Below, piece after piece: positions 953 to 62,690 of a stretch of DNA of 64,000 nucleotides. Every line of letters begins with the position of its first letter. Position 1 is the first letter of the stretch. Source of the DNA: an uncultured Acidobacteriota bacterium (GTDB lineage: Bacteria > Acidobacteriota > Vicinamibacteria > Vicinamibacterales > 2-12-FULL-66-21); NCBI GenBank assembly GCA_963820905.1, contig CAWGBU010000002.1, positions 366,144 to 430,143 on the forward strand, given 5' to 3'. The notes under the pieces are model-generated. The model saw nothing but the letters and a program-made list of their open reading frames with translations. It did no database searches and was not told the DNA's origin. The position numbers were made by a program, and so were the translations under genes.

Positions 953-1040
953 TCAGCTTCCAGCTTCCAGCTTCCAGCTCCCAGTTGGGAAAAGCTGGAA
1001 GCTCGTAGCTGGCAGCTGGAAGCTGGCAGCTGGAAGCTTT
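953..1040. repeat. Imperfect palindromic tandem hexamer array, (CAGCTT)n on the left and (AAGCTG/CAGCTG)n on the right, in a divergent promoter region
   Basis: Read directly: cagcttccagcttccagcttccagctcccagttgggaaaagctggaagctcgtagctggcagctggaagctggcagctggaagctt. It lies between the sigma start (889, minus) and the PHP gene start (1059, plus). Confidence 0.8.
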
Positions 1041-1058: not shown

Positions 1059-1748
1059 GTGCTGAAGACAGAGCTTCACGCGCATACCGACGCGGACCCG
1101 GCCGACCTCATCGACCACAGCATCCGCGACCTCGTCGACCATGCCGTATCGCTGGGCTATCAGGCGCTGGCGGTGACGCTGCACGATCGGTACTTCGATC
1201 CGGGCCCGCACGCGGCGTATGCGAGCGAGCGGGGGCTCGTGCTGATTGCCGGCATCGAGCGCACGATTCAGCGGCGCCACGTGCTGCTCGTCAATTTTCC
1301 GGCGTCGAGCGCGGACGTCGGGAGCTTCGAGGATGTCGCGCTGTTGAAGCGGCAGTACCCGGACGGGCTGATCGTGGCGCCGCATCCGTTCTATCCGATC
1401 CCGAGCGCGCTCGGCCGTCTTGCCGAACGCCACGCCGCGCTCTTCGACGCCGTCGAGGTCAACGCGATGTATACGCGGTATCTCGATTTCAACCGCCGGG
1501 CGATCGCGTGGGCGCGCGCGAACGGCAAGCCGCTCGTCGGCAACACGGACCTGCACCTGCTGCCGCAGATGGGCACCACGTACTCGCTCGTCGACGCCGC
1601 ACCGAACGCCGATTCGGTCTGCAAGGCGATTCGCGATGGACGTGTGACCGTGCAGTCCGAACCGCTCTCGACAATCAATGCCGTGCGGTTGTTCTCGAAG
1701 ATGTGCTGGGGCGGGCTCAAAGGCCGTCTCGGCCGTCGTCTTCGTTGA
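1059..1748 (+). CDS. PHP-domain metal-dependent phosphoesterase
   Basis: The 229-aa ORF has the N-terminal ELHAHTD motif and histidine/aspartate pattern typical of PHP (polymerase/histidinol-phosphatase) domains. Confidence 0.65.
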   Translation: MLKTELHAHTDADPADLIDHSIRDLVDHAVSLGYQALAVTLHDRYFDPGPHAAYASERGLVLIAGIERTIQRRHVLLVNFPASSADVGSFEDVALLKRQYPDGLIVAPHPFYPIPSALGRLAERHAALFDAVEVNAMYTRYLDFNRRAIAWARANGKPLVGNTDLHLLPQMGTTYSLVDAAPNADSVCKAIRDGRVTVQSEPLSTINAVRLFSKMCWGGLKGRLGRRLR

Positions 1749-1791
1749 CTCCCCTTCTTCGCTCGCTTACAGTGCGGGAAGGGGGAGCCGT

Positions 1792-4700
1792 ATGACGTTC
1801 AGGTCGTATTCGGGAAGGCGTCTGCTCGCATCCGTGATCGGCGCCTGCTTCGCCGTCTGCGCATACACCGCGCCGGCGCGCGCGCAGAGCGCGACGGGAT
1901 CGATCGAAGGCACGATCGTCGATCAGACGGGCGCGCTGATGCCGGGCGTTACGGTGACCGCCACGCAGTCCGCCACCCGGGCGTCCCGCACGGTCGTGAC
2001 CGACGAGAACGGCATCTTCCGCATCCCGCTGCTGCCGGTCGGCGTCTACGACCTCACGGCCGAGCTCGCCGGCTTCTCAGTCCCGGAAGCTGCCGGAGAT
2101 CACGCTGACGATCGGGCAGACGGTCACGCTGAACGTGCAGATGGCGGTCACGGGCGTCGCCGAAACCGTCAACGTCCCGGGCGGCACGCCGATCATCGAG
2201 ACGAGCCGCACGCAGGTCAGCTCGACGGTCGACGGAAGCGTCCGTGCAGAACCTGCCGGTCAACGGCCGCAACTTCATCGATTTCGCGCTGCTGACGCCG
2301 GGCGTGACGCGCGACGTCCGCACCGGCGACATCAGCTTCGCCGGGCAGCGCGGCACGCTCAACAGCCTCGTCGTCGACGGCGCCGACAACAACAACACGT
2401 TCTTCGGACAGACGCCCGGCCGGACCGGCTCGGCGCGCGCGCCGTATCAGTTCAGCCAGGACGCGGTGAAGGAGTTCCAGGTCAACTCGAACTCCTTCTC
2501 GGCCGAGTATCGGCCGCGCCGGCGGCGCGCGTCATCAACGTCGTCACCAAGTCGGGCACGAACGAGCTGCACGGCTCGGCCTTCGAGTTCTATCGCGACA
2601 AGGCGCTGAACGCGAACAACGCGATCAACGAGCTGAACAACCGGCCGAAGTCGCCGTACCACTACAACCAGTTCGGCGGCACGCTCGGCGGGCCCGATCC
2701 GGCGCAACCGGGACTTCTACTTCTTCAACTACGACGGCCAGCGCAACACGCAGCCGAACGTCGTCTTCCTGAACCTGCCGGCCAACACGCCGAACGACGC
2801 CGGCGACGCCGGCCGGGATCGCGCGGCTCGCAGCCGCTCGCCGACAGCTGGAACCGCAGGCTCGATCAGGACGTGTTCCTCGTCAAGACGGATCACGAGC
2901 TGAACGACGGCGAACCGGCTCACGCTGCGCTACAACCATCAGAACTTCACCGGCGAGGGATTCGAGAGCGGCGGCGCCCAGAACGCGTTCGAGCACACCG
3001 GCGCGTCGATCGTGAAGACGCGGACGTTCAACGCGAGCTGGACGAGCGTCGTCGGCGCGACGCTCTTCAACGAGCTCAGGTTCCAGTATGCGCGCGGACA
3101 AGGAGCCGGGGAGGCCAACACCGACGAACCCCGAGGCCGTCGTCCAGCAGAGCGGGACGACGGTGCTGACGATCGGCCGCAACAACTTCAGCCCGCGCGA
3201 GACGACGATCAAGCGCTGGCAGATCGCCGACACGGCGACCTGGCTGCGCAGGGCAGCACAAGCTGAAGGGCGGATTCGATTTCCAGTTCGACGACATCCT
3301 CAACCGCTTCCCCGGCTTCTTCAGCGGCTCGTACACGTTCCGCAGCCTCGCGTCGTTCGCCGGCGGCCGGCCGAACGCCGCGAACGAATCCTATCAGCAG
3401 AACTTCGCCGGGACCGGACACGACCGGGCGCCGAGACGCGACCCGGACCTCCGCGAGTACTCGTTGTTCGTCGCAGGACGAATGGAGGCTGACGCGCGAC
3501 CTCACGGTCAACCTGCGGGCTGCGCTACGACCTGATGAAGACCGAGGCGCCGCCGGTGCGCAATCCCGATCCGCAGCTCGCCGCGGCCGACATCGACACG
3601 AGCCGGCTCGACGCCGACACCAACAACTTCGGGCCGCGCCTCGGGCTCGCGTGGAGCCCGCGGGACGCGCGCTACGTGGTGCGCGGCGGGTGGGGACTCT
3701 TCTACGGCCGCACGCCGTCGATCATGCTCGGCACTGCCCACTCGAACAACGGCGATCAACATCGTGTCGCTGACGTTCACCGGCGACGCGGTTCCGACCT
3801 ATCCGCAGAACTTCTCGAGCATTCCCAGCACCGGGAGTCGCGGCGCGGCCGAACATCTTCTACATCGACCAGGACTTCGCCAACGCGCGGCTGATGCAGG
3901 CGAACGCCGCGGTCGAGTGGCAGATCCAGCGCAACACGAGCCTGACCGTCACGTATCTCTTCGTCGACGGCATCCAATCTTCCGCGATCGATCGATCGCA
4001 ACCTCGGCACGCTCGGCTCGCGCACGTTCACGGTCGCCGGGACGGGCAAGACGTTCCCGTATCACTTCTTCGGACGCCGATCGGCCATTCGCGAACTTCC
4101 AGCGCGTGATCGCGTTCGAGTCGACCGCCGAGTCGCGCTACAACGGCCTCACGCTCGAGCTGAATCGGCGCTTCGCGAATCATCTGCAGTTCCGCGTCGC
4201 CTACACGCTCGGCAAGGTCGACGACACCGTCCCGGACGCGACCGCGGTCGTGCCCGGCAACGCCGGCGACGACGTGAAGTACGCGTCGAACCCGAACGAT
4301 TTCGACGCCGATCGCACCGTCGGCAACAACGACCAGCGGCATCGCTTCGTGCTGAGCGGCGATCTACAACACCAACGGGCTCGCGAGGGGCCTCGACGGG
4401 ATTCACCGGCACGCTCCTCCGGACTGGTCGTTCAGCGCCATCTTGACCGCGCAGTCGGGGCAGCCCTACACGGCGCGCGTCGGCGCCGTCGATCTGAACG
4501 ACGACGGCAACACCCGCAACGACATCGCGCCCGGCACCGACGCGCAACCAGTTCCGGCTGCCGTCGGTCGTGACGTTCGATCCGCGGATCGCCCGCGACA
4601 TGCCGCTCGGGCCGCGACGCGCGTGCAGCTGATCTGGGAAGCGTTCAACCTGTTCAACCGCGACAACATCACCGGCGTCGACACGACGTACTACAGCGTG

Positions 4701-4796
4701 GCCGGCACGACGCTGACGCGCGGCACGACGTTCGGACGTCCCACGGTGAGCGCCGGCGAGCGGATCATGCAGCTGGCGGTGAAGATGACGTTCTGA
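1792..4796 (+). pseudogene. TonB-dependent receptor with a carboxypeptidase-regulatory-like N-terminal domain, disrupted by many frameshifts
   Basis: ATG at 1792 follows a GGGAAGGGGGA ribosome-binding site. It is followed by a signal peptide and the CarboxypepD_reg motif (SIEGTIVDQTGALMPGVTVTATQ...GIFRIPLLPVGVYDLTAELAGF). The reading frame then has to be switched repeatedly to follow the receptor, for example at about 2085, 2235, 2515, 2700 and many more sites, giving at least 8 switches. It ends with the canonical C-terminal ...IMQLAVKMTF-stop at 4794-4796. Confidence 0.8.
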
Positions 4797-5539
4797 TTCA
4801 AGAGCGGCCTTAGGCTTTGGGCTCTAGGCTTTAGCGCTTTTCAAACGCTGTAGGGTCCACCTTCAGGTCAATGCCCTTCGGAAATTTGCACTGTGTGCCG
4901 GCTCATAGGAGCCGGCCCGTTGGACATAGAGCCCATCTCACCAGCCGGCAGTCTCTTCCACCGGTGGGAAACATTCCAGCGTACCGATCAGCCGCGGTGG
5001 GCTGGCCGGCTCGGACCGCCGGCTTCGACAGCGCGGAAAAAATGGCCCCTCCGCCGGTCCTGACGTTGGCTGGCGACGGCTTGGGGTGATCCGCGCGCCG
5101 GTAAAGCATCGGTTCGGCAACGAGGTCGCTCGACCGCTTGGGACGAATCCGCGCCGCCGCCAGGTGGGATGCTCCGGGACCATTTTTAGAGGCTTCGCTG
5201 ATCGCGCTGCTCAACGTCGGCCCGAGCCGACCAGCCCACCACGGCGTGGAGGGCCAACCCGAGCGGTCGGGCGGTGCGCGTGGCGGCCGGCGGCCCTCGG
5301 AGCGCGCCGACGCGCGGCGTCAGCCGGAACGCGCGCGGAGCGATTCCGCGCGGCGCCTTCCGGCCCCGTGATCTTCCAGGTCACGAAGGACCACTGGCGG
5401 CCCGCGGCGCCTGACGCCGGATGCCAGAGCCAGCTCGTAGGCGGCGCGGCGGCGCCAGGGCGTACAGCCGGAGCGCGCGTTCCCGGCGCGCGGAGCGGGC
5501 CGCGGGCCGCCACGCGCACCGCACGATCGATCGACAATC

Positions 5540-6138: not shown

Positions 6139-6142
6139 GCCA

Positions 6143-6202
6143 GATTCAAGGTTCAGGGTTCAAGGTTCAAGGTTCAGGGTTCAGGTTCAAGGTTCAGGTT
6201 CT
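6143..6202. repeat. Tandem hexamer array (GGTTCA)n between the PadR and permease genes
   Basis: attcaaggttcagggttcaaggttcaaggttcagggttcaggttcaaggttcaggttc. Confidence 0.85.
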
Positions 6203-8911: not shown

Positions 8912-9751
8912 ATGAAATCATTCGCAGGCGTATGCCTTGCCGCGCTGTGGGCGGCGCTCCTCCCGGCACAGGGACCATCCTCCGTCAAGCCGTTCAGGAT
9001 CGTCGGCAACATCTATTACGTCGGCACATCCGATCCGACGGCGTTTCTGATCACGACTCCATCCGGACACATCCTGCTGGACACGACCTACGAGCAGTCC
9101 GCGCCGCTCGTGATGAACAGTATCTCGGCGCTCGGCTTCAAGCTCGAGGACGTCGAGATCATCCTGTCGAGCCACGCGCACCTGGATCACGTCGGCGGCC
9201 ACGCGGCCGTCAAGCGCGCGACGGGCGCGAAGGTCGTGGCGATCGCGGAGGACGCGGTGAACCTCGAGAGCGGAGGAAAGAGAGCGTTCCACCAGATCGG
9301 CTCGTTCGAACCGGTGTCAGTCGACCGCAGGCTGAAGGACGGCGACACGGTCGAGCTCGGCGGCGTGACGCTGACCGCCCATCGCACGCCCGGGCATACC
9401 GAAGGCAACACGGCATGGACGACGACCGTGCTCGACGGCAGCCGGCGCCTCTCCGTCGTCTTCGCGCCGAGCATGTCGATCAACCCGGGGGTGCGCATGG
9501 CGAAGTATCCGCCGTGGCCCACGATCGCCGACGCCTATGCGGCCTCGTTCAAGTTCCTGCGCGGGCTCACGCCCGATGTCTTCCTCGCGCCGCACGCCTC
9601 GTTCTTCGACCTCGAACGGAAGCTGCAGCAGCCGAAGGCCTCGGAGGGTTCCAACCCGTTCATCGATCCGGACGGCTACCGCAGGTTCCTCGACGATCTG
9701 GAAGGCAAGTACCGCGAGCAGCTTCGAAAGGACAGCGCCGGCCTCATGTAG
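8912..9751 (+). CDS. Subclass B3 metallo-beta-lactamase-fold hydrolase, secreted
   Basis: Signal peptide, HAHLDH (the HxHxDH zinc motif) and a downstream GHTEG histidine, about 280 aa. Confidence 0.75.
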   Translation: MKSFAGVCLAALWAALLPAQGPSSVKPFRIVGNIYYVGTSDPTAFLITTPSGHILLDTTYEQSAPLVMNSISALGFKLEDVEIILSSHAHLDHVGGHAAVKRATGAKVVAIAEDAVNLESGGKRAFHQIGSFEPVSVDRRLKDGDTVELGGVTLTAHRTPGHTEGNTAWTTTVLDGSRRLSVVFAPSMSINPGVRMAKYPPWPTIADAYAASFKFLRGLTPDVFLAPHASFFDLERKLQQPKASEGSNPFIDPDGYRRFLDDLEGKYREQLRKDSAGLM

Positions 9752-9836
9752 TGTCCGGCTTGAGCCGGACCACCCCTGGTCCGCCTGAAGGCGGACGCTA
9801 CAGGAATGCAGCTGTAGTGTCCGGCTTCAGCCGGAC
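9748..9836. repeat. Three tandem copies of the REP-like hairpin element between convergent genes
   Basis: tgtagtgtccggcttgagccggac / gtccgcctgaaggcggacgctacag / ctgtagtgtccggcttcagccggac. Confidence 0.8.
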
Positions 9837-9837
9837 C

Positions 9838-10551
9838 TCACTGCTGCGCTGGCTTCGCTGCCCCCGAAGCAGGCGCGGCACCGCCGCGCTGCCGTCCCGA
9901 AACGATCATGACGACGATCGCAATCACCACCAGGATCCCTCCGGCGGCCACGACGCGCCCGGGGATCAACTCGAAGATGCGCGCGGCGAAGTACGCCTGC
10001 AGGTAGCAGAGCGGCGCCATGCCGACGAGCGTGCCGGCCGCGACCTTCCACGCGGGCACGCCCGCGATTCCTGCGGCGTACGACACCAGGTCGGAGGACG
10101 TCAGGGGATTGGCGCGCAGCAGCAGGACGACCCACAACCCGCGGGCCTGAAGCCGTTCGCGATAGCGGCCGATCTCACCAGCGCTCGCGGCGCCAAACAG
10201 GCGCTCGCCGATCGCTCCGCCGAGCAGGCAGCTGATCGCGGCGCCGATCACGTTGCCGATGAGCGACAGCGTCCCGCCGAGAAAGCCGCCGAAGATCGCG
10301 CCGCCGGGCGCATACAGCAGCGTGCCGGGGATCGGCGCGACGACGACTTCGACGACAACGATGGCGGTGTAGACGACGGGCGCGAACGGGCCCCAGGACG
10401 CGACGGCGGCGCGCAGACGATCCAGCCACGGGCCCTGATCCGGCGTGCCGGTGACCAGCACGTAGACGAGGCCTTCCGTCGCATACGACAGGACGGCCCA
10501 TCCGATCAGGACGACGAGGACGATGAGGAGGGCGAGCGAGCCACGGCGCAC
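9838..10551 (-). CDS. TVP38/TMEM64 (DedA-related) family membrane protein
   Basis: 237-aa polytopic membrane protein with the glycine-rich conserved core of the TVP38/SNARE-associated family. Confidence 0.6.
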   Translation of the reverse strand: MRRGSLALLIVLVVLIGWAVLSYATEGLVYVLVTGTPDQGPWLDRLRAAVASWGPFAPVVYTAIVVVEVVVAPIPGTLLYAPGGAIFGGFLGGTLSLIGNVIGAAISCLLGGAIGERLFGAASAGEIGRYRERLQARGLWVVLLLRANPLTSSDLVSYAAGIAGVPAWKVAAGTLVGMAPLCYLQAYFAARIFELIPGRVVAAGGILVVIAIVVMIVSGRQRGGAAPASGAAKPAQQ

Positions 10552-10563
10552 GGTGGTCCGGCG

Positions 10564-11505
10564 TCAGGCCGCGGGTCTGAGCGGCGGGAGTACGGCTTCG
10601 ATGCGGCTCCGCGCGGGCTCGAGCCATGGCGGCAGCACGAGCGACTCGCCCAGGTGCTCGCGATCCTCGTCGACCGCGAAACCGGGGCCGTCCGTCGCCA
10701 GCTCGAAGAGCACGCCGCCCGGCTCCTTGAAGTAGACCGACTTGAACCAGAATCGATCGATGACGGGCGTCGCCTGCGCCCCGCCGGACTCGACCTGCGC
10801 GCGCACCGCGAGCTGATGCAGGTCGTCGTCCACGCGCCACGCGAGATGATGAACGCTGCCGACGCCCCACGCGCCGCGGCGTTCCTCGGCCGCCTCGCGG
10901 ACGTCCACGACCCCGGCGCCGTCGGCGAAACCGTAGCGCGTCCATCCGTTCTCTTCGGCGATGCGCTCGAAGCCGAGCACCGCCGTCAGGAACTCGGTGG
11001 TCGGCGCCAGGCTCCGTTCCCAGATCTGCGCGCCGTACAGTCCTCGCACCTGACGTTCGGGCTCGACGGTGCTGTGCTGCCACGGCGAGAATTTCTGCCG
11101 CTTCGAACGCGATGGTTCCACGAGCGCGAGCCGCAGCCCGTGCGGATCGACGAGCGGCAGCACGCGATCGCCGAAGCGCGTTTCGGCCGCACTGACGCGG
11201 GCCTCGTACTTCTGGAGCCGCTGTCCCCAGAAGTCGAGGCTGCCGGCCGGCACTTCGAGCGCGACTTCCACCGCCAGCCCGTGTCCGATGCGGGGCGGCG
11301 CCATCTGCGCCCACGGGAAGAACGTGAGGTCGGTGCCGGGCGATCCTTCCGCGTCCGCGTAGAACAGGTGATAGGTGCCGGGATCGTCCTGGTTGACGCT
11401 TTTCTTGACGAGCCGCATGCCGAGCACGCCGCTGTAGAAGTCGAGGTTCTCCTGCGCGGGACCGGAGATCGCCGTGATGTGGTGCAGCCCGTTGACGCTC
11501 CGCAT
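10564..11505 (-). CDS. Ring-cleaving dioxygenase of the VOC/glyoxalase superfamily, with two VOC domains
   Basis: The 313-aa ORF begins MRSVNGLHHITAISGPAQENLDFYSGVLGMRLVKK... and carries a second VOC module. This is the MhqO/YfiE-like architecture. Confidence 0.75.
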   Translation of the reverse strand: MRSVNGLHHITAISGPAQENLDFYSGVLGMRLVKKSVNQDDPGTYHLFYADAEGSPGTDLTFFPWAQMAPPRIGHGLAVEVALEVPAGSLDFWGQRLQKYEARVSAAETRFGDRVLPLVDPHGLRLALVEPSRSKRQKFSPWQHSTVEPERQVRGLYGAQIWERSLAPTTEFLTAVLGFERIAEENGWTRYGFADGAGVVDVREAAEERRGAWGVGSVHHLAWRVDDDLHQLAVRAQVESGGAQATPVIDRFWFKSVYFKEPGGVLFELATDGPGFAVDEDREHLGESLVLPPWLEPARSRIEAVLPPLRPAA

Positions 11506-11534
11506 GAGGGGATCTTAGATCGGCTTTCAGAACT

Positions 11535-11559
11535 GCTGTAGTGTCCGGCTTCAGCCGGA
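11535..11559. repeat. REP-like hairpin element
   Basis: ctgtagtgtccggcttcagccggac. Confidence 0.8.
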
Positions 11560-13098
11560 CCTCACCCACCGGGCTTTTTGATCAGCCTGTCCAGGAAGCC
11601 CTTCAGTTCGTCCTTCGCCCTGTTGCGAAACGCGCGGCCGAGCGCGGCCTGCACGTCGATGAATACCGTAGGGCGACCCGACGGTCCCGTTGATCGTCGC
11701 CGGGAGCACGATGCGCTCCCCTTCGCGCGCGAGCCTGTACAGGTCGCGTCCGGCCTGCGCGCTGAGCTCCTTCGAGAGGACGACGTCCGTGCGAAAGGCG
11801 ATTGCCTTCGAGGCGAGCGAGAGGTTGCCCCGGCCGGTCATGTCGAGATCCCGCGATTCGAACACCAGGTCGCTCGTGGAGAGCCGCGGCCCGTCGATCG
11901 CGAGCGTCGCGGCGATCCGGTTGAACGCTTCGCCGGATCCTGCGGGGCGCTCGCCAGTCGACCTGCCGAAGGCGAGCACGACGCTCCGGACGATTTCGAG
12001 GCCGGGGATGCGGCCGTCCGTGGCCCTGACGCGCGCCGAGCCGCGCGCGTCGCGAATGGCCTCGGCGGGATCGGTACCTGGCGCGCCGAGGCTGATCGTG
12101 CCCGCGAGCCGTCCGGTGATCGAGCCGGGTGCTCCAGCGAACTCGGTCAGCTTCGGCACGTCGACGTTGTCGAAGCTGCCCTTCCACTCGTAGCGGCCGG
12201 CGTTGAGCGCGCCGCGGAAGGCCGCCGATCCCGTGTAGTTCCCGCCGAAGACGCCCATTCGCAGATCGTCGAGCAGCACGTCGCTGCCCCGCGCGCGAGC
12301 GGTGGCGCTCATGTCGGTGAGCCCGACGCCGAGCGCCCTGCCCTGCCGCGCGCGAATCCGTATCTCGACGTCGAGCGGCACGCGGACCGGAGGCGCCGCG
12401 CTCGCGGCAGACGGACGCGCCGCGCCGGCGGGCGTCGCCGCCGCGAGAAACGCCATCACCCCGTCGAGATCCAGCGTCTGCGCATCGACCGTGAACGTTC
12501 CGGTCCGCTTCGCGACGCTGGCGAGCTCGCCCGACGCCGTGAACGTCGAGGCATCCGACGCGCCGCGCATCTCGCGGATCACGAGGCGGTCGCCGCCGGT
12601 GAACGACCCGTCCAGGTTCACCAGCAGGGCGCGGTCGCCGGCCATCAGCGTCACGTCGCGCAGCGCGATCGTGCGAACGGAATCAACCGTGAGCGCGTAC
12701 GACGACGGCGCAGCCGGCGGTTTCGCTCCCGGCGCTTCGCCTGCCATGGCCGCCATGAGCGCGAGCGCCCAGCGCACGTCGATCCGGCTCTCCTCGACCG
12801 AGACGTCCGCCTCCTCGACGCGGCGCCGCACGAGCGCGCGGAGGCCCGTCGCGAGCCGGACGCGTTCGATCCGGACCTCGCGCGAGGAACCGATGGCGAT
12901 GCCGTCGAGGTCGAGGCTGACGCGGGGGAAGAACCGCGGGCTCGCGGTCCGAATCGTCACGGGCTGCCCGAGCGCAATCGTCGCCTGCGATTCGATCGCC
13001 GCCTTGATGCGATCGCCGCCGAGCGCGATGCGCACCGCGATCGCGAGCAGCGCCGCGAGAACGGCAATCACCCCGAGAAGGATCAGGAGACGCTTCAT
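11551..13098 (-). CDS. AsmA-family outer-membrane assembly protein
   Basis: The start MKRLLILLGVIAVLAALLAIAVRIA (ATG reverse complement at 13096-13098) overlaps the stop of the upstream deacetylase. An N-terminal TM helix is followed by an AsmA-like beta-rich domain. Confidence 0.6.
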   Translation of the reverse strand: MKRLLILLGVIAVLAALLAIAVRIALGGDRIKAAIESQATIALGQPVTIRTASPRFFPRVSLDLDGIAIGSSREVRIERVRLATGLRALVRRRVEEADVSVEESRIDVRWALALMAAMAGEAPGAKPPAAPSSYALTVDSVRTIALRDVTLMAGDRALLVNLDGSFTGGDRLVIREMRGASDASTFTASGELASVAKRTGTFTVDAQTLDLDGVMAFLAAATPAGAARPSAASAAPPVRVPLDVEIRIRARQGRALGVGLTDMSATARARGSDVLLDDLRMGVFGGNYTGSAAFRGALNAGRYEWKGSFDNVDVPKLTEFAGAPGSITGRLAGTISLGAPGTDPAEAIRDARGSARVRATDGRIPGLEIVRSVVLAFGRSTGERPAGSGEAFNRIAATLAIDGPRLSTSDLVFESRDLDMTGRGNLSLASKAIAFRTDVVLSKELSAQAGRDLYRLAREGERIVLPATINGTVGSPYGIHRRAGRARPRVSQQGEGRTEGLPGQADQKARWVRSG

Positions 13099-13844
13099 GA
13101 CGTCGAGAAATGGGACGACTGGAGTGACGGATCGCAGAGACGCCCGAACGAGAAACCCTGCGATCGAAGCGCCGGCGCCAGGAGCCGCACGGTCTCCGCC
13201 GCATGGCGGCGATCGGCGCGCGGGTTGGCGTGGTGCCCGTCGTGGATGACGACGATGTCGCCGGCGGAGGCCTTGCGGGCGAGCCGGCTGGCGGTGCGGT
13301 CGCCGCGAGGCGTCCGCCACCAGCTCCAGTCCCACATGCCCCAGCTCCAGCCGGCGAGGCGGTAGCCGATGCGATCGAGGCCCTCGTACATCGACGCGCT
13401 GCGCCATCCGCCGTGCGGGCGGAACAACCTGCACGGCTCGACGCCCGCGATCGACGTGATGCGATCGGCGGCGTTCCGCAGGCGCGCCGCGAGCGCGTCG
13501 GGCGGCATGATCATCAGCTGCCGCGTGCCGCTGTGCAGCCCGATGGCATGGCCCTCGTCCGCTATCCGCTTGACGATCGGCGCGGTCTCCGCCGTGATGT
13601 GCTCGTCTATCAGAAAGAACGTCGCCGCGATCTTCTCCTGCTGCAGCGCGTCCAGGAGCGCCGGCGTCCACTCCGGGTTCGGCCCATCGTCGAACGTCAG
13701 GTAGATCCGCGGCGGCGTTCCGGCCGGAGCGGCAATCCGCCAGACCGACTTCGACGGCCGGAACGCTTCCAGCAGGAACGGCGCGGGCGCCGTGTGCGAG
13801 AGCACCGCGGCGCCGGCGATGACGAGCACGAGGAGGACGATCAC
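13095..13844 (-). CDS. Polysaccharide deacetylase (NodB/CE4 family)
   Basis: YLTFDDGP motif and other CE4 histidine motifs; 249 aa. Confidence 0.8.
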   Translation of the reverse strand: MIVLLVLVIAGAAVLSHTAPAPFLLEAFRPSKSVWRIAAPAGTPPRIYLTFDDGPNPEWTPALLDALQQEKIAATFFLIDEHITAETAPIVKRIADEGHAIGLHSGTRQLMIMPPDALAARLRNAADRITSIAGVEPCRLFRPHGGWRSASMYEGLDRIGYRLAGWSWGMWDWSWWRTPRGDRTASRLARKASAGDIVVIHDGHHANPRADRRHAAETVRLLAPALRSQGFSFGRLCDPSLQSSHFSTS

Positions 13845-13845
13845 A

Positions 13846-14205
13846 TCAGGCAGTCGCTTTCGTGCGCCCGTACCGCTGCGTCGCGTACCCGACGATCAGG
13901 CCGACCACGCATCCCGGCAGCATGATCTGCCACCAGTAATGCGTGCCGTCCGGCTGCGGCATCGCCGCGACCAGGAACGCGAAGAACCCGCTGATGGCGA
14001 TGCCCGCAAGGATGCAGGCCTGAAGCGATCGCACGCGCGTGGCGACCCACCCGATCAGCGCGCCCGCGACAACGCCCTTGAACGTCGATCCGATCACGAT
14101 GCCGAGAATTCCAGGCGCAACCTCCGGCGCCGACAAAAGCGCGCTGAGACCGTCGAAGATGCCGAGCACGCCGCCAAGGACAAGACCCAACACTGGTTTG
14201 CTCAT
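13846..14205 (-). CDS. Small integral membrane protein, function unknown
   Basis: 119-aa ORF with 3-4 predicted TM helices. It heads the deacetylase/AsmA operon. Confidence 0.4.
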   Translation of the reverse strand: MSKPVLGLVLGGVLGIFDGLSALLSAPEVAPGILGIVIGSTFKGVVAGALIGWVATRVRSLQACILAGIAISGFFAFLVAAMPQPDGTHYWWQIMLPGCVVGLIVGYATQRYGRTKATA

Positions 14206-14263: not shown

Positions 14264-14322
14264 GTCCGGCTGAAGCCGGACACTACAGCGGTCTCGGGTC
14301 CTGCTGAAGCCGGACGCTACAG
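14264..14322. repeat. Two copies of the REP-like hairpin element 3' of the kinase gene
   Basis: gtccggctgaagccggacactacag and gtcctgctgaagccggacgctacag. Confidence 0.75.
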
Positions 14323-14331
14323 GGGCCGCGT

Positions 14332-15389
14332 TCACCAACCGGCGAACACTGCCACGGCCGTCCGCATGACGATATAGGCCAGCACGAGCAGGATGGGCGT
14401 GCGGTACGCCCGCGCGATGCGGACGCCGCGCTCGATCGCGGTCTCCCTGTACGCACCCACCGCGCCGCCGGCACGATACCGCGCGATGTCCTCGCCGAGC
14501 GCCGCCACGCTCTGATAGCGCGCGCCGGGATCGCCCGCGATCGCCTTGACGCAGATCGCCGCCAAGCGGCCGCGGCACGTGATGCTCACGGAGAACGCCA
14601 CCCGGCTCGCCGGCCGGCGGGAGCTGATCGGTGAGCAGCAAAAACAAGATCACCCCCAACCCATACACATCCGCGCGAACGTCTATCTCCGCGGCGCCAC
14701 TGGCCTGCTCCGGCGCCATGAACCCACGGGTACCGATCACCATCCCGTCCGCAGTCTGAGATCGACCGTCGACTGTGACTGCCGACTGTGACCGTCGACT
14801 GCCGACTGTCGACCGGGACGTCGACCGTCGACTGTGACTGCCGACTGAGACTCTCGACTCCCGACTGTCGACCGTCGACTGTCTTTGCGGCCCCCCAGTC
14901 CATCACCATCACTTCGCCGAACGCACCGACCATCACGTTGTCGGGCTTCAGGTCCCTGTGGATCACGCCATGCGCGTGCGCGAACGCCACCGGATCGCAG
15001 ATCCGCTCGAACACGCGCAGCCGCGCGGCGAGGTCCGACACCTCCGTCAGGTAGTCGCGAAGCGTCCGCCCTTCGACGCGCTTCATGACGTAGAAGAGCC
15101 GGCCGTCCGCCAGCCGGCCGGCATCGTGAATCGGCACGATCCCCGGGTGCTCGAGCCGCGCCAGCGCGCGCGCCTCGAGCTGCAGCCGGCGATCCAGCGC
15201 TTCGCCGTCGAGGCTGTTGGGAATCTTGATTGCCACGTCGCGCCCGAGGACTTCGTCGCGCGCGAGGAAGACCGTCCCCATTCCGCCGCGTCCGATCTCC
15301 TCCACCACCGAGTAGCGGCCCGACTCGAACTCGGGCCAGTTCCCGATGCTGCGAAGCCGGCCGATCGCCCGATCGGAGAGGCCGCTCAC
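14332..15389 (-). pseudogene. Ser/Thr protein kinase (Hanks-type), disrupted by a hexamer-repeat insertion in the activation loop plus two frame changes
   Basis: The GTG start overlaps the sigma stop. The N-lobe reads (EEIGRGGMGTVFLARDEV...VAIKI), then HRDLKPDNVMV and DWGAAK. The 125-bp (CGACTG)n array then interrupts. GTRGFMAPEQ and the following C-lobe are in a second frame, and the C-terminal DPGARYQSVAALGEDIARY is in a third. The codon phases run 2, 1, 0. Confidence 0.7.
14756..14880. repeat. Tandem hexamer array (CGACTG/TGACTG)n inside the kinase coding region
   Basis: cgaccgtcgactgtgactgccgactgtgaccgtcgactgccgactgtcgac...cgactgagactctcgactcccgactgtcgaccgtcgactgtc. Confidence 0.85.
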
Positions 15390-16123
15390 TCGACCTCCAG
15401 GCCGAACAGCTCGCGCGCTTCGCGGCGGAACTCTTCGTTGCTGCCGCACAACCCGCGGAGGCTGGCCAGCGCACGGTCGCGAAACCGGCGGCGGACCTGT
15501 GCCAGCGTATTGGTCACCTGCGCTGTCGTCAGGCCGAATTCCGCGGCAAGCTGCGCGTAGCTCACGCCCTCGGCGGGATCGAGATCGTAACGCTCGAAGA
15601 GCGTGAAGTGCGTCGGGCGCCCGCTGTCCTCGTACTCGGCGCGGAGCTGACGGACGGCGCTGTCGAACAGCGCGCGCACGAACTCCTGGTGGAAGAACGC
15701 CTCGGGCTCGGGCTGCGTCGTGAGCTGGGCGGCGACCTCGCGCTCGGCGCCTTCGAAATCGAGCGGCACGGTGCGGGCGCCGCCGCCGCGTTTGAGGCGG
15801 GAGGCGGACTGCCGCATGTTCATCACGAAACGATCGGCGCACACGCGCACGAACGTGCGGAACTTCGCCTTCGCCGGCTCGTACTTCTCGAGCCACGATT
15901 TCTGGAACGCGTCCGCGAAGAACGCCTGCGTGAGATCCTGCGCGTCCTCGGACTCGAGGCGCCAGGTGATTCGGAGGTGCTTGTACACCGGCTTCCAGTA
16001 GCCCTCGACCAGGTCGCCGAACGCCTCCCGGCGCGCCTCCGGATCGACGTCGCGCATCCGCTCGATCACGGAGTGCCGCGTCGCGGGAAACCCGCCCGGC
16101 GAATGCGCGTCACCTGCACTCAT
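15386..16123 (-). CDS. Sigma-70 family (ECF-like) sigma factor, translationally coupled to the Ser/Thr kinase
   Basis: The 245-aa ORF has region 2 (DLVEGYWKPVYKHLRITW...DLTQAFFADAF) and region 4 (SYAQLAAEFGLTTAQVTNTLAQVRRRF). Its TGA stop overlaps the GTG start of the kinase. Confidence 0.8.
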   Translation of the reverse strand: MSAGDAHSPGGFPATRHSVIERMRDVDPEARREAFGDLVEGYWKPVYKHLRITWRLESEDAQDLTQAFFADAFQKSWLEKYEPAKAKFRTFVRVCADRFVMNMRQSASRLKRGGGARTVPLDFEGAEREVAAQLTTQPEPEAFFHQEFVRALFDSAVRQLRAEYEDSGRPTHFTLFERYDLDPAEGVSYAQLAAEFGLTTAQVTNTLAQVRRRFRDRALASLRGLCGSNEEFRREARELFGLEVE

Positions 16124-16195
16124 GACTCTGGACTCTGGATTTGAACCTTGAACCCTGAACCTTGAACCCTGAACCTTGAACCCTGAACCGCGCCA
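16124..16195. repeat. Tandem hexamer array (TGAACC)n in a divergent promoter region; inverse of the 6143-6202 array
   Basis: tggatttgaaccttgaaccctgaaccttgaaccctgaaccttgaaccctgaacc. Confidence 0.85.
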
Positions 16196-16233: not shown

Positions 16234-17163
16234 ATGGCGACCGGTCAGCTCGACGCGAAGATCGATGAGCTCTATCAGGGGCCGCCCGAGGCATTCACCG
16301 AGGCGCGCAACGCGCTGGCGAAGGAGTACGGGAAGGACGGGGCGGAGATCCGGCGCCTGCAGAAGCCTCCCGCGGCGGCGTGGGCGATCAACATGGTGTA
16401 CTGGCAGCGGCGCGCCGCGTACGACGCGCTGATGGCGGCAGCATCCTCACTGCGAGCGGCGCACACCGCCGTGCTCGCCGGGAAGCGCGCCGACCTGCGC
16501 GCCGCAGGAAAGGCCCACGAGGACGCGTTCGAGGCGTTCCTCAAGACCGCGCTCGCGCTGCTCGCAGCCGCGGGGCAGCCCGCCAGCGACGGGACGAAGC
16601 AGGCGATCGCGAATACGCTGCGCGCGCTGCCCTCGTCGAGCGAACGTCCGGGACGGCTCTCGCAGACGCTCCAGCCTGGAGGCTTCGAGCTCCTGGCCGG
16701 CCTTCCTGCGGGCGGCGCGGTTCAGCGTCCGCCCAAACCGTCTCCGTCTCCTCGACCCGCTCCCGCGTCGCGCGCAACACCGGCAGCAGAGTCGCGCGCT
16801 GAACAGGCGGAGCACGCCAAGGCGATCGCCAGGGCGAAGGACGCGGCCGCCGAAGCAGCGCGAGCCGAGAAGGCCGCGGATCAGAACGCGCGCCGCGAAG
16901 AGTTCGAGGCCGCGCGCGCCGCGCGCGACTCGGAGCGCGCCGAACGGTCCCTCGCGGAAGCGCGCGCCGCGCTCGACGCGGCGCAGCTGGCTGTCGACGA
17001 TGCCCAGGAAGCGGCGACTGCGGCGCTGAGAAAGAAAGAGGCCGCGGGCCGCCGGGTCCGCGAGAGCGCCGACGCACTTGCGCGTGCGCGCGTGAAGACG
17101 CAGACCGCGCAGGCCGAGCTCGCGCGCGTCGACGGTACCTCCGCGCGGAGACGAGGCCGATAA
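16234..17163 (+). CDS. Hypothetical Ala/Arg/Glu-rich protein with a probable coiled-coil C-terminus
   Basis: Uninterrupted 309-aa ORF with consistent codon usage. No recognisable domain. Confidence 0.4.
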   Translation: MATGQLDAKIDELYQGPPEAFTEARNALAKEYGKDGAEIRRLQKPPAAAWAINMVYWQRRAAYDALMAAASSLRAAHTAVLAGKRADLRAAGKAHEDAFEAFLKTALALLAAAGQPASDGTKQAIANTLRALPSSSERPGRLSQTLQPGGFELLAGLPAGGAVQRPPKPSPSPRPAPASRATPAAESRAEQAEHAKAIARAKDAAAEAARAEKAADQNARREEFEAARAARDSERAERSLAEARAALDAAQLAVDDAQEAATAALRKKEAAGRRVRESADALARARVKTQTAQAELARVDGTSARRRGR

Positions 17164-20756: not shown

Positions 20757-21587
20757 CTACGCGGTCACCTGCTGCCGGCGCCGCAGCACCTCGTCGAGCA
20801 CGCTCGGGCGTGACTGATGAGCGTGATGTTCGAGAAAATCGATCACGTGCCGACGGCAGCGGTGGTACTCGGGATGTGCCAGCACCGCTGAGCGGCGGCG
20901 CGGGCGCGGGAAGGGCACCACCAGCGACTCGCCGACGGTCGCTTCGGGGCCATCCGTCATGAGCAAGAGGCGATCGGCCAGGTAGAGTGCCTCGTCCACA
21001 TCGTGGGTGACCATCACCACGGTCTTGTCCGACTCCTCCCACACCCGAAGCAGGATGTCCTGCAGCTCGAACCGGGTCAGCGAGTCGAGCTGAGAAAACG
21101 GCTCGTCTAGGAGGAGGAACCGCGGCTCGAGCGACAGCGCCCGCGCCAGCGACACGCACTGCTGCGTCCCGAGGGAGACGTGCGCAGGCAGCTCGCCCGA
21201 CACATCGTCCACCCCGGCCATCGCGAGATAGCGATCCGCGGCGTCGCGCTGCTCGCGCGCGCCGATGTCGCGTCGCTGCGCGGCTGCGAGCAGCACGTTG
21301 TCGCGCACAGTCAGCCACGGCAGCAGGCAGGGCGATTGAAAGACCATGGCGCGCTCGGCGCCAGGTCCGATCACTTGTGTCCCGTCGATCACGACGCCGC
21401 CGTAGGTGGCGCGCTCGAGCCCGGCAATCATCGAGAGGACGGTCGACTTGCCGCAGCCGGAGTGGCCGAGCATTGCGACGAATTCTCCAGCGCGAACCTC
21501 GGCGTTGATGTCGCGCACGGCGACGAACGGACCCGACGGCGTGTCGAAGACCTTGGTCAGTCCGGTCAGCTCGAGCGGCGCCCTCAT
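20757..21587 (-). CDS. ABC transporter ATP-binding protein (NitT/TauT family, NrtD/CmpD-like)
   Basis: Walker A GHSGCGKST, the signature, and Walker B LLLDEPFSQLD. Confidence 0.85.
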   Translation of the reverse strand: MRAPLELTGLTKVFDTPSGPFVAVRDINAEVRAGEFVAMLGHSGCGKSTVLSMIAGLERATYGGVVIDGTQVIGPGAERAMVFQSPCLLPWLTVRDNVLLAAAQRRDIGAREQRDAADRYLAMAGVDDVSGELPAHVSLGTQQCVSLARALSLEPRFLLLDEPFSQLDSLTRFELQDILLRVWEESDKTVVMVTHDVDEALYLADRLLLMTDGPEATVGESLVVPFPRPRRRSAVLAHPEYHRCRRHVIDFLEHHAHQSRPSVLDEVLRRRQQVTA

Positions 21588-22441
21588 CGCGACTCCTCCG
21601 TCGCCAGCTCGATCGACGTCACGGCGTCCGCGTCCTGTCGCGGCTGACCGCGTCGAATGCGGCCGCCAATCGCCGCGGTCAGCGTCGCGATCACGTGCGC
21701 CCGCACGTGCGTCGCATCCTCTTCGTAGGCGAGCTGCGACAGGCTGCGCGGCCGCGACAACCGGACGCGAATCGGCGCGCCGAGCGTGGCCGGTGGTCCG
21801 GGCAGCATCGGAACGATCCAGTCGGACAACAGAATGGCCTCCTCGACGCTGTTGGTGATCATCACCGTCGTGACGGGGCGCTCGGCTGATGAACAGAGCC
21901 GCACCAGATCCTGCTGCAGGGTCTCGCGGGTCAGAGCGTCGAGGGCGCCAAACGGCTCATCCAGGAACAGCAACTCGGGGTTCGTGGCAAACGCGCGAGC
22001 GATCGCGACGCGCTGCCGCATGCCGCCGGAAAGCTGCCCCGGCCGACGGTGCATGGCGTTGCCAAGACCAACCTGTTCGAGCGCGCGCCGCGACTGCTCG
22101 AGCTGCGCCTCGCGATTGAGCAGCGGACACGCCGCGCGCACTGCCAGTCGAACGTTCTCGAGCGCGGTGAACCACGGCAACAGCGAGTAGTTCTGAAACA
22201 CGACGCCGGCGTCCTGCCGCACGTCGCGCACCGGCTCCCCGCCAATCACCACCGAGCCGCTATCCGGGGTGGTCAGGCCGGCGAGAATGCTGAGCAGCGT
22301 CGTCTTGCCGCTCCCCATCGCGCCGACGATGGAGGTGAACTCGCCACGCTCGACCGCGAAGGACACGTCGCGCAGCACCGGCCTGACGCCGGCGGCCGTC
22401 GCGAACGACTTCGAGACGCCGGAGACTTCGATGAACGCCAT
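21584..22441 (-). CDS. ABC transporter ATP-binding protein (NitT/TauT family), second ATPase
   Basis: The start was chosen at MAFIEVSGVSKSF (ATG reverse complement at 22439-22441), 6 nt after the permease stop. Walker A GAMGSGKTT, LSGGMRQRVAIARA, LLFLDEPFGALD. Confidence 0.8.
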   Translation of the reverse strand: MAFIEVSGVSKSFATAAGVRPVLRDVSFAVERGEFTSIVGAMGSGKTTLLSILAGLTTPDSGSVVIGGEPVRDVRQDAGVVFQNYSLLPWFTALENVRLAVRAACPLLNREAQLEQSRRALEQVGLGNAMHRRPGQLSGGMRQRVAIARAFATNPELLFLDEPFGALDALTRETLQQDLVRLCSSAERPVTTVMITNSVEEAILLSDWIVPMLPGPPATLGAPIRVRLSRPRSLSQLAYEEDATHVRAHVIATLTAAIGGRIRRGQPRQDADAVTSIELATEESR

Positions 22442-49769: not shown

Positions 49770-50159
49770 ATGGGCAAGAAGTTCAAGGAACCCGAAGATG
49801 CGGCGGAGGCGTTCGGCGTCGGCAAGCTCACCCGCCATCTCTTCCTCTGCCTCGGTCCCGACTGCTGCGATCGCGACGACGGCGAGCGGACGTGGGACTA
49901 CCTGAAGAAGCGCATGAAGGAGCTGAACATCACGGGCGGCGACGGTCCCTTCTACCGCACGAAGGTCGGGTGCTTCCGCATCTGCACCGACGGTCCCATC
50001 TGCGTCGTGTATCCCGAAGGGGCCTGGTACCGCGACGTCACACCTCAGAACGCGGAGCGGATCATCCAGGAACACTTGATCGGCGGACGGGTGGTGGAGG
50101 ATCTGTGCTTCGCTCGCAACGAGCTGCGAACGCGATCAGTCGGTAGTCGGCTACTTTGA
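49770..50159 (+). CDS. Thioredoxin-like [2Fe-2S] ferredoxin
   Basis: ATG after GGAGA. The cysteine pattern LCLGPDCCD ... [12 protein letters not shown] matches Trx-like 2Fe-2S ferredoxins (NuoE-like). Confidence 0.65.
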
Positions 50160-50606
50160 GTATCGGATTGTGTATGGATTCTGGATTGCCCCGGTAGCTT
50201 CGATCGTCTGTCTCACCTGGATGACGAGGGTGGCCCCCTCGAGGCGCATGACAGTCGTAAGCACGTACGGCGCAGCGGCGTCCCGTACAGGCGTGCGCGT
50301 CACCAACGACTCCCCGTCCCAGACCGTGGTCGAAACCTGAACGTATTCCGGAGCGTTCGCCGGCTTGATGACGTTCCTGCTTTCGGACCCGTCGAGCTTT
50401 TGGACCCAGCGAATCACGCCAGACGGAGACTGAGTCTCAACTACGAGCGTGTCGGGGGTCTGCGAGATGGTCGTGGTCTCGACCGCTTCACCGGGTGACG
50501 TGGGGATCTTTTTCCACTTGCCGGAGAAGTCAGGTTTCGTCTGCTCCAGTCCGGCCGTGAGCGCCAGACTCAGAAGGAGCCGCGCGACAACCAGCATCAT
50601 GGGCAC
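50151..50606 (-). CDS. Secreted hypothetical protein (small beta-rich, lipocalin-like)
   Basis: Signal peptide [22 protein letters not shown]. 151 aa. Confidence 0.4.
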
Positions 50607-50669
50607 CTCGCTGCTTCATTTCACGCCGCTTCTTTGACTCCTCTAGGTCAGCGCACGGCGGCACCCGAC

Positions 50670-55655: not shown

Positions 55656-55732
55656 TGGTGCGCCCGGCAGGGCTCGAACCTGCAACCTTCGGCTCCGGAG
55701 GCCGACGCTCTATCCAATTGAGCTACGGGCGC
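55656..55732 (-). tRNA. tRNA-Arg (anticodon CCG)
   Basis: Reverse complement GCGCCCGTAGCTCAATTGGATAGAGCGTCGGCCTCCGGAGCCGAAGGTTGCAGGTTCGAGCCCTGCCGGGCGCACCA. Cloverleaf with anticodon loop CTCCGGA, encoded CCA. Confidence 0.9.
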
Positions 55733-55830
55733 AGACAGTCGACAGTCGGGAGTCGTCAGTCGGGAGTCGTCAGTCGGTAGTCTCAGTCGACAGTCAGAGT
55801 CGACAGTCGATAGCTCGAGACAACTTGACC
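55733..55830. repeat. Tandem hexamer array (CAGTCG)n immediately 5' of tRNA-Arg(CCG)
   Basis: cagacagtcgacagtcgggagtcgtcagtcgggagtcgtcagtcggtagtctcagtcgacagtcagagtcgacagtcgatag. Confidence 0.85.
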
Positions 55831-62395: not shown

Positions 62396-62472
<77 letters not shown>

Positions 62473-62690
62473 AAATCAGTCGACAGCCACACAGTCGTCA
62501 GTCGGCAGTCGACGGTCGTCAGTCCTAGTCGACAGTCACAGTCGACAGTCGACGGTCGCAGGTGATCGTCATCGTAGCACAACGACTACCGACTGCCGAC
62601 TGTGACTGTCGACTGAGACTGCCGACTGCACGACTGCCGACTGTCGACTGTCACAGTCACTGTCATCTCTTCTTGGCCGCTCAATTTCGT
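62473..62690. repeat. Palindromic tandem hexamer array, (CAGTCG)n then a central spacer then (CGACTG)n, 5' of tRNA-Arg(TCG); it overlaps the 3' end of the methyltransferase ORF
   Basis: aaatcagtcgacagccacacagtcgtcagtcggcagtcgacggtcgtcagtcctagtcgacagtcacagtcgacagtcgacggtcgcaggtgatcgtcatcgtagcacaacgactaccgactgccgactgtgactgtcgactgagactgccgactgcacgactgccgactgtcgactgtcacagtcactgtc. Confidence 0.85.

Follow-up and report, generated by a model that had tools for sequence, protein, structure and literature searches.

The window analysed here is a stretch of 64,000 nucleotides from contig CAWGBU010000002.1 of an uncultured Acidobacteriota bacterium, and its subject is a pair of minus-strand genes encoding a sigma factor and a Hanks-type Ser/Thr kinase, the latter with a tandem repeat array in the codons of its activation loop. 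In the best explanation, a bacterium of the Vicinamibacterales (Acidobacteriota) has here a signalling operon of two genes, with translational coupling between the sigma factor and a cytoplasmic kinase anchored by its tail. The array is the coding sequence of a lineage-typical activation-loop insert and not a disabling insertion, and the three frame lesions that break the kinase gene in the window most likely arose as consensus errors, the metagenome assembly being error-prone and probably based on long reads. An intact kinase of 353 amino acids (aa) would then be the product of the real gene. Taken as a whole, the explanation by a coupled operon, a repeat-coded loop insert grown in place and frame lesions due to assembly error is, in our estimate, a probable one.

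The kinase gene and its product

The first reading frame of the kinase is open from its GTG start at 15389 through the motifs GxGxxG, VAIK, HRDLKPDN and DWG (the equivalent of the canonical DFG, at 14892-14900), as the initial annotation of this DNA, made from the sequence alone, had described. The same annotation had placed the later parts of the gene in different frames, and this was borne out: the APE motif is read in a second frame, and a third frame, ending at a stop codon at 14332-14334, holds the C-terminal third, from PRPL/AAICVKAIAGDPGARYQS to the hydrophobic tail. The window kinase thus fails to form an uninterrupted single reading frame; three 1-nt corrections, made with orthologues and a nearly identical locus (L064, described below) as guides, restore that frame.

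The N-terminal frame matched the Pkinase profile PF00069 with E=2.1e-24 (86.8 bits, against a cut-off of 31.7), and the APE-bearing frame matched it with E=2.1e-05. The catalytic motifs are all present (GRGGMGTV, VAIKI, LEARAL, HRDLKPDN, DWG, APE and RYQS). Residues D164, W165 and G166 are invariant in an alignment of 89 sequences, tryptophan taking the place of the phenylalanine of DFG.

With the closest intact orthologue (P0001) as the query, the closest solved structure was the kinase domain of M. tuberculosis PknB (1mru, E=1.7e-38). An AlphaFold2 model of the same orthologue has a confident kinase fold, with a predicted local distance difference test (pLDDT) of 81.4 and a predicted template modelling score (pTM) of 0.77. 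Residues 173-196 of this model, which belong to the activation-loop insert, have pLDDT values below 50, and the insert of P0001 is predicted to be disordered. The model further contains a helix at residues 312-332, in the C-terminal tail, and the hydrophobic tail of the kinase is probably a membrane anchor. No extracytoplasmic domain follows the tail, so that signal input is probably cytoplasmic or conveyed through partner proteins.

The repeat array encodes an insert in the activation loop

The array is composed of CAGTCNN-type units on the sense strand. Tandem Repeats Finder (TRF) assigned to it a period of 7, with 18.3 copies, 73% matches and 9% indels. In a sense-strand parsing the spacings between successive GTC cores comprised 11 sevens and 6 sixes, and the autocorrelation was 0.53 at lag 7 versus 0.27 at lag 6. 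The initial annotation had correctly placed an array in the activation loop, but had given it as 125 bp of (CGACTG)n hexamers, where the length is 122 nt and the period 7. The unit is of consequence, since the gain or loss of units never shifts the frame in a hexamer array, whereas in a heptamer array it can. Within the array a stretch of 59 nt is duplicated, and a 14-nt imperfect direct repeat lies on its two flanks; no inverted repeats were found within 14700-14920. From DWG to APE the window measures 184 nt, or 61.3 codons and thus out of frame, in place of the approximately 58 codons first estimated.

Three copies of the heptamer ACAGTCG (ACA GTC GAC AGT CGA CAG TCG) encode T-V-D-S-R-Q-S and, three heptamers being 21 nt, a perfect array specifies the same cyclic peptide TVDSRQS from all three frames. 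The array-encoded insert is rich in S, R, Q, V and D, with about 20% serine. In the window it sits exactly between KTVD and TADG, and ends with another TVDGRSQ. The array-less orthologue L147 (75% identical) reads AAG ACG GTC GAT GAG ACG GCC GAC GGC at this point, i.e., KTVD-E-TADG. The exact position of the window insert, together with the single seed in L147, argues for expansion in place and not for the insertion of an element.

Orthologues were sought with the frame-joined kinase as the query, and the best 120 of thousands of relatives were analysed. These proteins are 58-80% identical to the query, mostly over the full length, and originate from soil and sediment metagenomes; one of them carries the name Vicinamibacterales at its source, and the genome loci found through the sigma factor (see below) are named Vicinamibacterales or Acidobacteriota. 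Both DWG and GTxGFMAPE were found in 119 of the 120. The distance from DWG to APE ranges from 22 to 137 residues (median, 51), with the canonical spacing of 20-30 residues in 25 of the proteins, and 65 of the set contain at least two motifs encoded by the sense strand of the heptamer (SRQS, QSES, VDS). At the DNA level, CAGTCNN units compose the loop in those related genome loci that carry an array. DWG and APE share a frame in all 15 related genome loci in which both motifs were found by a DNA search independent of the calling of open reading frames (ORFs). In the metagenome orthologue L145 the array is organised in higher-order units of 39 nt (7+6+7+6+7+6), of which there are 7.9 copies (92% matches, no indels); the unit is in frame, each copy providing 13 codons.

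A metagenome scan with the kinase alignment yielded at least 80 loci of more distant relatives; the 80 retained are 44-57% identical, and constitute no unbiased sample of close alleles for a test of phase variation. The 15 of these loci that were parsed by their motifs were all in frame, and had non-repetitive DWG-GTxGFMAPE loops of up to about 50 residues and no heptamer arrays. A search of a protein collection with an idealised repeat peptide gave no match that passed, although the low-complexity query may have defeated it.

Heptamers are not the only repeats in this loop. A translated GC-rich palindrome (PFDEAQGDPEHVEG or VRLQPD) occurs inside the activation loop of seven orthologues (P0013, P0020, P0023, P0025, P0028, P0058 and P0066), and the VRLQPD of P0013 is the translated form of the GTCCGGCTGAAGCCGGAC motif that is found past the kinase stop in the window (Table 1). 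The orthologue loops of L002, L003, L009 and L010 likewise carry palindromes resembling repetitive extragenic palindromic (REP) sequences, for which the form in the relatives is CCCTTCGAC...GTCGAAGGG. In three orthologues (e.g., P0106) the peptides DCRL/ADCGL are those expected from the opposite repeat strand, as judged from the peptides only. The loop palindromes and the heptamer arrays together indicate that genomic repeats of different kinds can be accommodated in the activation loop.

Two possibilities had been raised by the initial annotation: that a mobile or expandable repeat inactivated the kinase, or that it encodes an SRQSTV-rich low-complexity insert, the 1-nt frame changes alone being disabling. 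Inactivation by the repeat is not supported, given the dozens of orthologues with an array at the same loop position, in frame, and L064, which reads through it. The comparison with orthologues, which had been named as a means of refuting inactivation, revealed the same in-frame repeat and, after correction, an open frame, both of which support the second possibility.

The insert is situated between DWG-x-A-K-T-V-D and T-A-D-G-x-V-I-G-T-x-G-F-M-A-P-E, as a serine-rich segment that is predicted to be disordered. It would have arisen, and would still vary in length, through tandem expansion and contraction of the 7-nt CAGTCNN unit, with the native K-T-V-D codons (ACA GTC GAC) as the seed of the expansion. 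Since all three frames of the heptamer give the same cyclic peptide, selection would act mainly on the net length of the insert (a multiple of three), and may in this way have yielded the 13-nt (7+6) and 39-nt higher-order units. The insert itself may be carried neutrally in a loop that tolerates it, or may modulate activation as a spacer or as a phospho-acceptor with several sites; this is the least supported step of the proposed mechanism.

Frame lesions and the sister strain

Locus L064 (ENA ERZ25039469, contig_216144), which was located through its identical sigma protein, shares 98.8% identity with the window along 7.9 kb, and thus derives either from a sister strain or from a separate assembly. 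L064 reads from DWG to APE in a single frame. Alignment with it resolved the interruption of the window kinase into three lesions (14819, 14776 and 14564/14565; Table 1) rather than the two 1-nt frame changes of the initial annotation. Lesions 1 and 2 together put APE out of frame. At the third, L064 is without the extra T of the window and has PRPLAAICV, which matches the VPRPLAAIC of the orthologues. The two arrays are equal in unit number; two isolated single bases and one substitution are all that separates them. The 59-nt duplication was considered as the frame breaker and rejected, since 59 mod 3 = 2, whereas frame repair requires a deletion of 1 mod 3, and since the duplication is also common to the in-frame L064.

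Two lesions are private to the kinase gene of L064, which has one C too many in GCCCGGG and one G too many in TCAGCGTG. No frame lesion is common to the two strains, from which it follows that the gene was intact in their common ancestor. Five 1-nt corrections provide full-length kinases in both strains (353/354 aa). The corrected genes differ by 10 synonymous and 6 non-synonymous changes, corresponding to a ratio of non-synonymous to synonymous polymorphism (pN/pS) of 0.21 (binomial P=0.0024 against neutrality), and the kinase has therefore been under purifying selection since the divergence of the strains.

Other genes of the window are broken as well, and a phase map of GC content at third codon positions (GC3) shows repeated phase switches. 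The CarboxypepD_reg/OMP_b-brl_4 outer-membrane gene at 1678-4793 is divided into at least five ORF pieces in several frames, four of which match successive parts of an 838-position barrel profile and a fifth of which carries the N-terminal CarboxypepD_reg domain. The copper amine oxidase at 50154-52632 is spread over six overlapping ORF pieces, the Pfam matches of which come from consecutive parts of the protein (N2, N3 and enzyme domains), and the ABC ATPase at 20757-22253 lacks one nucleotide at 21761 relative to L064, where the gene is intact. Among loci from metagenome-assembled genomes (MAGs), the kinase itself is multi-frame in L009, L017 and L057; it is single-frame in L005, L011, L012, L016 and L019. 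These observations point to the window as an error-prone assembly with errors clustered in certain genes. Only the naming of the sister contig and the pattern of frame errors suggest that long reads underlie it. The kinase lesions are probable errors because none is common to L064, because the gene is under purifying selection and because other window genes are equally shattered.

The sigma factor gene and operon organization

The sigma factor gene is an intact ORF, the product of which falls slightly below the threshold in all three models applied: 19.2 bits for Pfam Sigma70_r2 (cut-off 24), 17.6 for Sigma70_ECF PF07638 (cut-off 21.1) and 40.5 for TIGR02937 sigma70-ECF (cut-off 42.9), residues 33-216 being spanned in the last case. 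It is therefore called a divergent member resembling the extracytoplasmic function (ECF) sigma factors. Its region 2.2 reads EDAQDLTQAFF, and the KRGG linker motif is also present. In 28 members of the family, region 2.2 takes the form (E/D)DAxDLTQxFF, in which both acidic residues are kept, and an invariant threonine is located two residues past the second aspartate. The TGA stop codon of the sigma gene overlaps the GTG start codon of the kinase gene in the sequence GTGA (15389-15386, minus strand), as the initial annotation had seen.

Sigma homologues were detected at 63 genome loci, distributed among Acidobacteriota, Myxococcota (Sorangium), Planctomycetota and Gemmatimonadota. In 57 of these loci a Hanks-type kinase is encoded directly downstream on the same strand, which makes the sigma/kinase pair a conserved module. 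The classification of ECF sigma factors includes group-specific hidden Markov models, and its kinase-associated groups include ECF43, ECF59-62, ECF217, ECF267 and ECF283 (PMC7826278). In ECF43, uncharged residues take the place of the DxxD in region 2.2, where a phospho-acceptor threonine is conserved and the consensus is QTTA (PMC13147305), and the co-encoded Hanks kinase directly phosphorylates and activates the sigma factor (PMC13147305; overview in PMC7826278). The initial annotation had likened the locus to the ECF groups associated with Ser/Thr kinases; the coupling was upheld by the 57 loci, but the ECF43 hallmark was not found, and by that hallmark the window sigma family is not ECF43. 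By analogy with the pairs EcfP/PknT and EcfK/PknS, which are compared below, the kinase would activate the sigma factor by phosphorylation.

In the immediate surroundings of the pair no gene for an anti-sigma factor was identified. Divergent from the sigma gene, the ORF at 16234-17163 (plus strand) encodes a 309-aa Ala/Arg-rich protein, and downstream of the kinase the ORF at 13846-14205 (minus strand) encodes a 119-aa predicted membrane protein; neither has a family match, and the 119-aa gene holds the same post-kinase position in L146 and L147. A promoter-like TTGCCG-16-TATGAT sequence on the minus strand at 16234-16207, a consensus match only, would place the (TTGAACC)7 array in the 5' leader of the sigma gene. 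In the region past the kinase stop no terminator was found, and folding was no better than that of shuffled sequence (z = -0.15). An Rfam scan of the window returned three tRNAs only, with no RNA family overlapping the kinase array.

At the junction at about 13118-13124 of the window, L064 has an extra segment of about 2.86 kb (9038-11896) that is absent from the window. This segment holds a gene of the beta-lactamase family and one for a formamidase/acetamidase that is itself split into two ORFs.

Alternative explanations

The lesions could also be those of a real and recent pseudogene, in a lineage that lost kinase function through indels acquired independently in the window and in L064, the array being ancestral and not the cause. 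It would account for the disruption of the kinase in both strains at different sites, for the failure of the gene caller to call it in L064 as well, and for the finding that, over the 7.9 kb compared, five of the six coding frameshifting 1-nt indels fall inside the 1.06-kb kinase gene. We nonetheless regard it as unlikely, given an ancestral gene that was intact, a pN/pS that departs from neutrality and a full complement of catalytic motifs. In addition, the multi-frameshift pattern is also seen in unrelated conserved genes of the window, the pieces of which have strong domain matches, in the ABC ATPase that is broken in the window and intact in L064, and in other MAG assemblies of the kinase gene. 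The clustering of indels in the kinase does, however, weigh against our explanation, as do several further points. Uniform error would not predict such clustering, which could instead reflect relaxed constraint or a context-specific error mode, and the attribution of the lesions to error rather than to very recent mutation is an inference. The functional link between kinase and sigma factor is presumed by analogy, and the ECF43 phospho-switch may not apply as such, since the acidic DxxD is kept in the sigma factor. Finally, the insert may be neutral with respect to function.

The array also invites the view that the gene is a phase-variable contingency locus, in which slipped-strand steps of 7 nt switch the kinase on and off, the window containing an OFF allele. 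A unit of 7 that is not divisible by 3 is located inside an ORF, in a long tract of about 18 units; array length varies widely among species, and arithmetically the deletion of one 7-nt or 13-nt unit would repair the DWG-APE frame. Yet the tract is heterogeneous (mixed 7- and 6-mers, in addition to the modest level of matches), which disfavours slippage, the third lesion is outside the repeat, and DWG and APE are in frame at every one of the 15 related genome loci. In the one strain pair available, the window and L064 differ by isolated single bases instead of a unit step, and such switching is very improbable. Insertion of a mobile repeat element, whether similar to a miniature inverted-repeat transposable element (MITE), REP-like or other, into the activation-loop codons is, to our mind, scarcely credible. 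This idea draws on the heptamer-family arrays at other sites of the window, on the three orthologues with an apparently opposite array orientation, on the 14-nt direct repeat that flanks the kinase array, and on the translated REP-like palindromes in the same loop of some orthologues, which imply that foreign repeat DNA can land there. The flanking 14-mers were examined as a target-site duplication and rejected, as they are native MVM/MVI codons that are also present in the array-less L147. Terminal inverted repeats are lacking, the array starts and ends in register with the native seed (KTVD ... TVDGRSQ-TADG), and its structure, a pure tandem array with higher-order units, is typical of in-place expansion.

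Other period-7 arrays and repeats in the window

Apart from the kinase array, the GC3 map, ORF positions and sequence context assign every period-7 array of the window to non-coding DNA. The initial annotation had reported the same repeat family elsewhere, as hexamers, and had considered its insertion an active process. Arrays of the kinase-array family are indeed present at 55734-55810 and 62477-62664, with a heptamer unit. As to an active process, length variation among species and the several sites in the window agree with it, but expansion from a native seed is favoured over insertion. The arrays at 55734-55810 and 62477-62558 are located 1-4 nt upstream of the 5' ends of two tRNA-Arg genes on the minus strand (CCG and TCG anticodons; 55656-55810 and 62396-62664). 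The inverted pair at 62477-62664, which separates this tRNA from the stop codon of an ORF upstream, could fold into a hairpin with two arms of some 80 nt each. The (TTGAACC)n family is also found in L011 (11802-11866).

Among the 64 loci examined (L001-L064) and the window, 7 was by far the most frequent short repeat period, TRF reporting 98 rows of period 7, compared with 13 of period 6 and 15 of period 8. Period-7 arrays were observed in Vicinamibacterales, in Chloracidobacterium (L028), in other Acidobacteriota (L026) and in a Phycisphaeraceae MAG (L030). In genomes of Acidobacteriota such arrays thus appear to be both frequent and undescribed; the literature searched contained nothing relevant on tandem repeats of heptanucleotides or heptamers in Acidobacteria or in Vicinamibacter. 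Intergenic pairs of inverted heptamer arrays recur at several Acidobacteriota loci (L006 16062-16146, L012 8942-9025, L028 17-98 and 899-961), and their unit sequence differs from genome to genome.

Table 1. Features of the sigma/kinase locus and repeat arrays in the window.
Feature	Position	Strand	Basis and remarks
ECF-like sigma factor gene, divergent	15386..16123	-	intact ORF, 245 aa
Hanks-type Ser/Thr kinase gene	14332..15389	-	three-frame translation; corrected product 353 aa; full-length identity to orthologues 60-77%
DWG codons (DFG-equivalent)	14892..14900	-	sequence; invariant in family
Tandem array of CAGTCNN-type units (sense strand)	14762..14883	-	122 nt; TRF
APE codons within GTRGFMAPEQ	14708..14716	-	second frame; Pkinase profile positions 157-198
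C-terminal hydrophobic tail TPILLVLAYIVMRTAVAVFAGW	14335..14400	-	translation; kept in orthologues
Frame lesion 1	14819..14820	-	window one base short, GTCGAC-GTCC vs GTCGACAGTCC in L064; alignment
Frame lesion 2	14776..14777	-	window one base short, CAGTC-ACAGTC vs CAGTCGACAGTC in L064; alignment
Frame lesion 3	14564..14565	-	extra T in CCGCTTGGCG; CCG CTG GCG GCG ATC = PRPLAAI in L064/orthologues
Two REP-like GC-rich hairpin units (GTCCGGCTGAAGCCGGAC)	14264..14320	.	just past kinase stop; one base different in L064
(TTGAACC)7 array between sigma start and divergent ORF 16234	16141..16189	.	TRF; kept in L064 (5935-5983)
Inverted pair of heptamer arrays, (CAGCTTC)n facing (AAGCTGG)n	954-984 and 992-1038		
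Heptamer array after outer-membrane gene	4806-4840		
(TTGAACC)n-family heptamer array	6141-6201		fills gene spacer
(CAGTCGA)n arrays, kinase-array family	55734-55810 and 62477-62558		abut tRNA-Arg 5' ends
Inverted partner of the 62477-62558 array	62583-62664		24-nt spacer

Significance of the locus

A kinase killed by a simple-sequence repeat would have been a curiosity; such a finding is here most likely an assembly artefact over a normal gene. Frame breaks in MAGs can mimic pseudogenisation, and a near-identical strain combined with pN/pS can sort such cases. The novelty that remains is small but genuine, and consists of a hypervariable heptamer-built activation loop (22-137 residues) in a widespread sigma-coupled kinase subfamily. 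Should the serine-rich insert be phosphorylated, or set the threshold of activation, it would offer evolution a simple means of tuning a signalling kinase.

A broader proposal, which we hold to be doubtful, is that a genome-wide process producing 7-nt arrays in Vicinamibacterales, and apparently in other Acidobacteriota, was co-opted in the sigma-coupled kinase, where in-frame CAGTCNN expansions would form a hypervariable, multi-serine disordered loop that tunes activation between species through its length and its content of phospho-acceptors. Were this the case, the insert would be a bacterial counterpart of the eukaryotic activation-segment inserts, evolving at microsatellite speed.

Comparison with known systems

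The pairs EcfP/PknT of Vibrio parahaemolyticus and EcfK/PknS of Xanthomonas citri resemble the window pair in that the gene for an ECF, or here ECF-like, sigma factor adjoins a gene for a Hanks-type kinase. They are further alike in having no anti-sigma gene identified nearby, a membrane-anchored kinase and a pairing that extends across phyla. In contrast to these systems, the window sigma factor keeps the acidic DAQD instead of an uncharged motif of the QTTA type, and the window kinase has a C-terminal anchor only, without an extracytoplasmic sensor domain, in addition to its DWG for DFG and its long repeat-encoded loop insert.

PknB (1mru) has all of the Hanks subdomains in common with the window kinase family. 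The segment of PknB between DFG and the phospho-threonines is short, and the window insert, placed between the Mg-binding DWG and the conserved GT-x-x-GT-x-GFMAPE, occupies the equivalent segment. The distance from DFG to SPE in PknB is about 27 residues, compared with 62 in the corrected window protein and up to 137 in its orthologues. PknB also possesses extracellular PASTA domains, unlike the window kinase.

Inserts in the activation segment are found in eukaryotes, among the plant AGCVIII kinases (PINOID, phototropins), the NDR/LATS kinases and the Plasmodium kinases, in which they are of low complexity. Such inserts, between subdomains VII (DFG) and VIII (APE), are long, variable, largely disordered and compatible with catalysis. 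Those of the Plasmodium kinases derive from simple-sequence expansion, and those of the NDR and AGCVIII kinases have defined regulatory or localisation roles. The window kinase shares with these enzymes a long and variable insert, but differs in lineage and in the origin of the insert, since none of the eukaryotic inserts is known to be built from a 7-nt DNA unit. A literature search for activation-loop inserts in bacterial Hanks-type kinases found nothing relevant.

Phase-variable genes with simple-sequence repeats are known as the contingency loci of Neisseria, Haemophilus and Campylobacter. The window kinase is similar to these in its intragenic repeat, with a unit that is not a multiple of three. 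Unlike them, its tract is heterogeneous, exhibits no unit-step polymorphism relative to L064, and is in frame in the relatives examined.

A parallel at the level of the repeat itself is provided by the short tandemly repeated repetitive (STRR) sequences of heterocystous cyanobacteria. These are arrays of 7-nt units, of which several families occur per genome, mostly intergenic and of unknown function; a literature search on them returned only papers that used STRR for fingerprinting. The window arrays are like STRR in their 7-nt unit and mostly intergenic location, and differ in phylum and in unit sequences. They differ also in that one window array family lies in conserved coding sequence, where it is translated.

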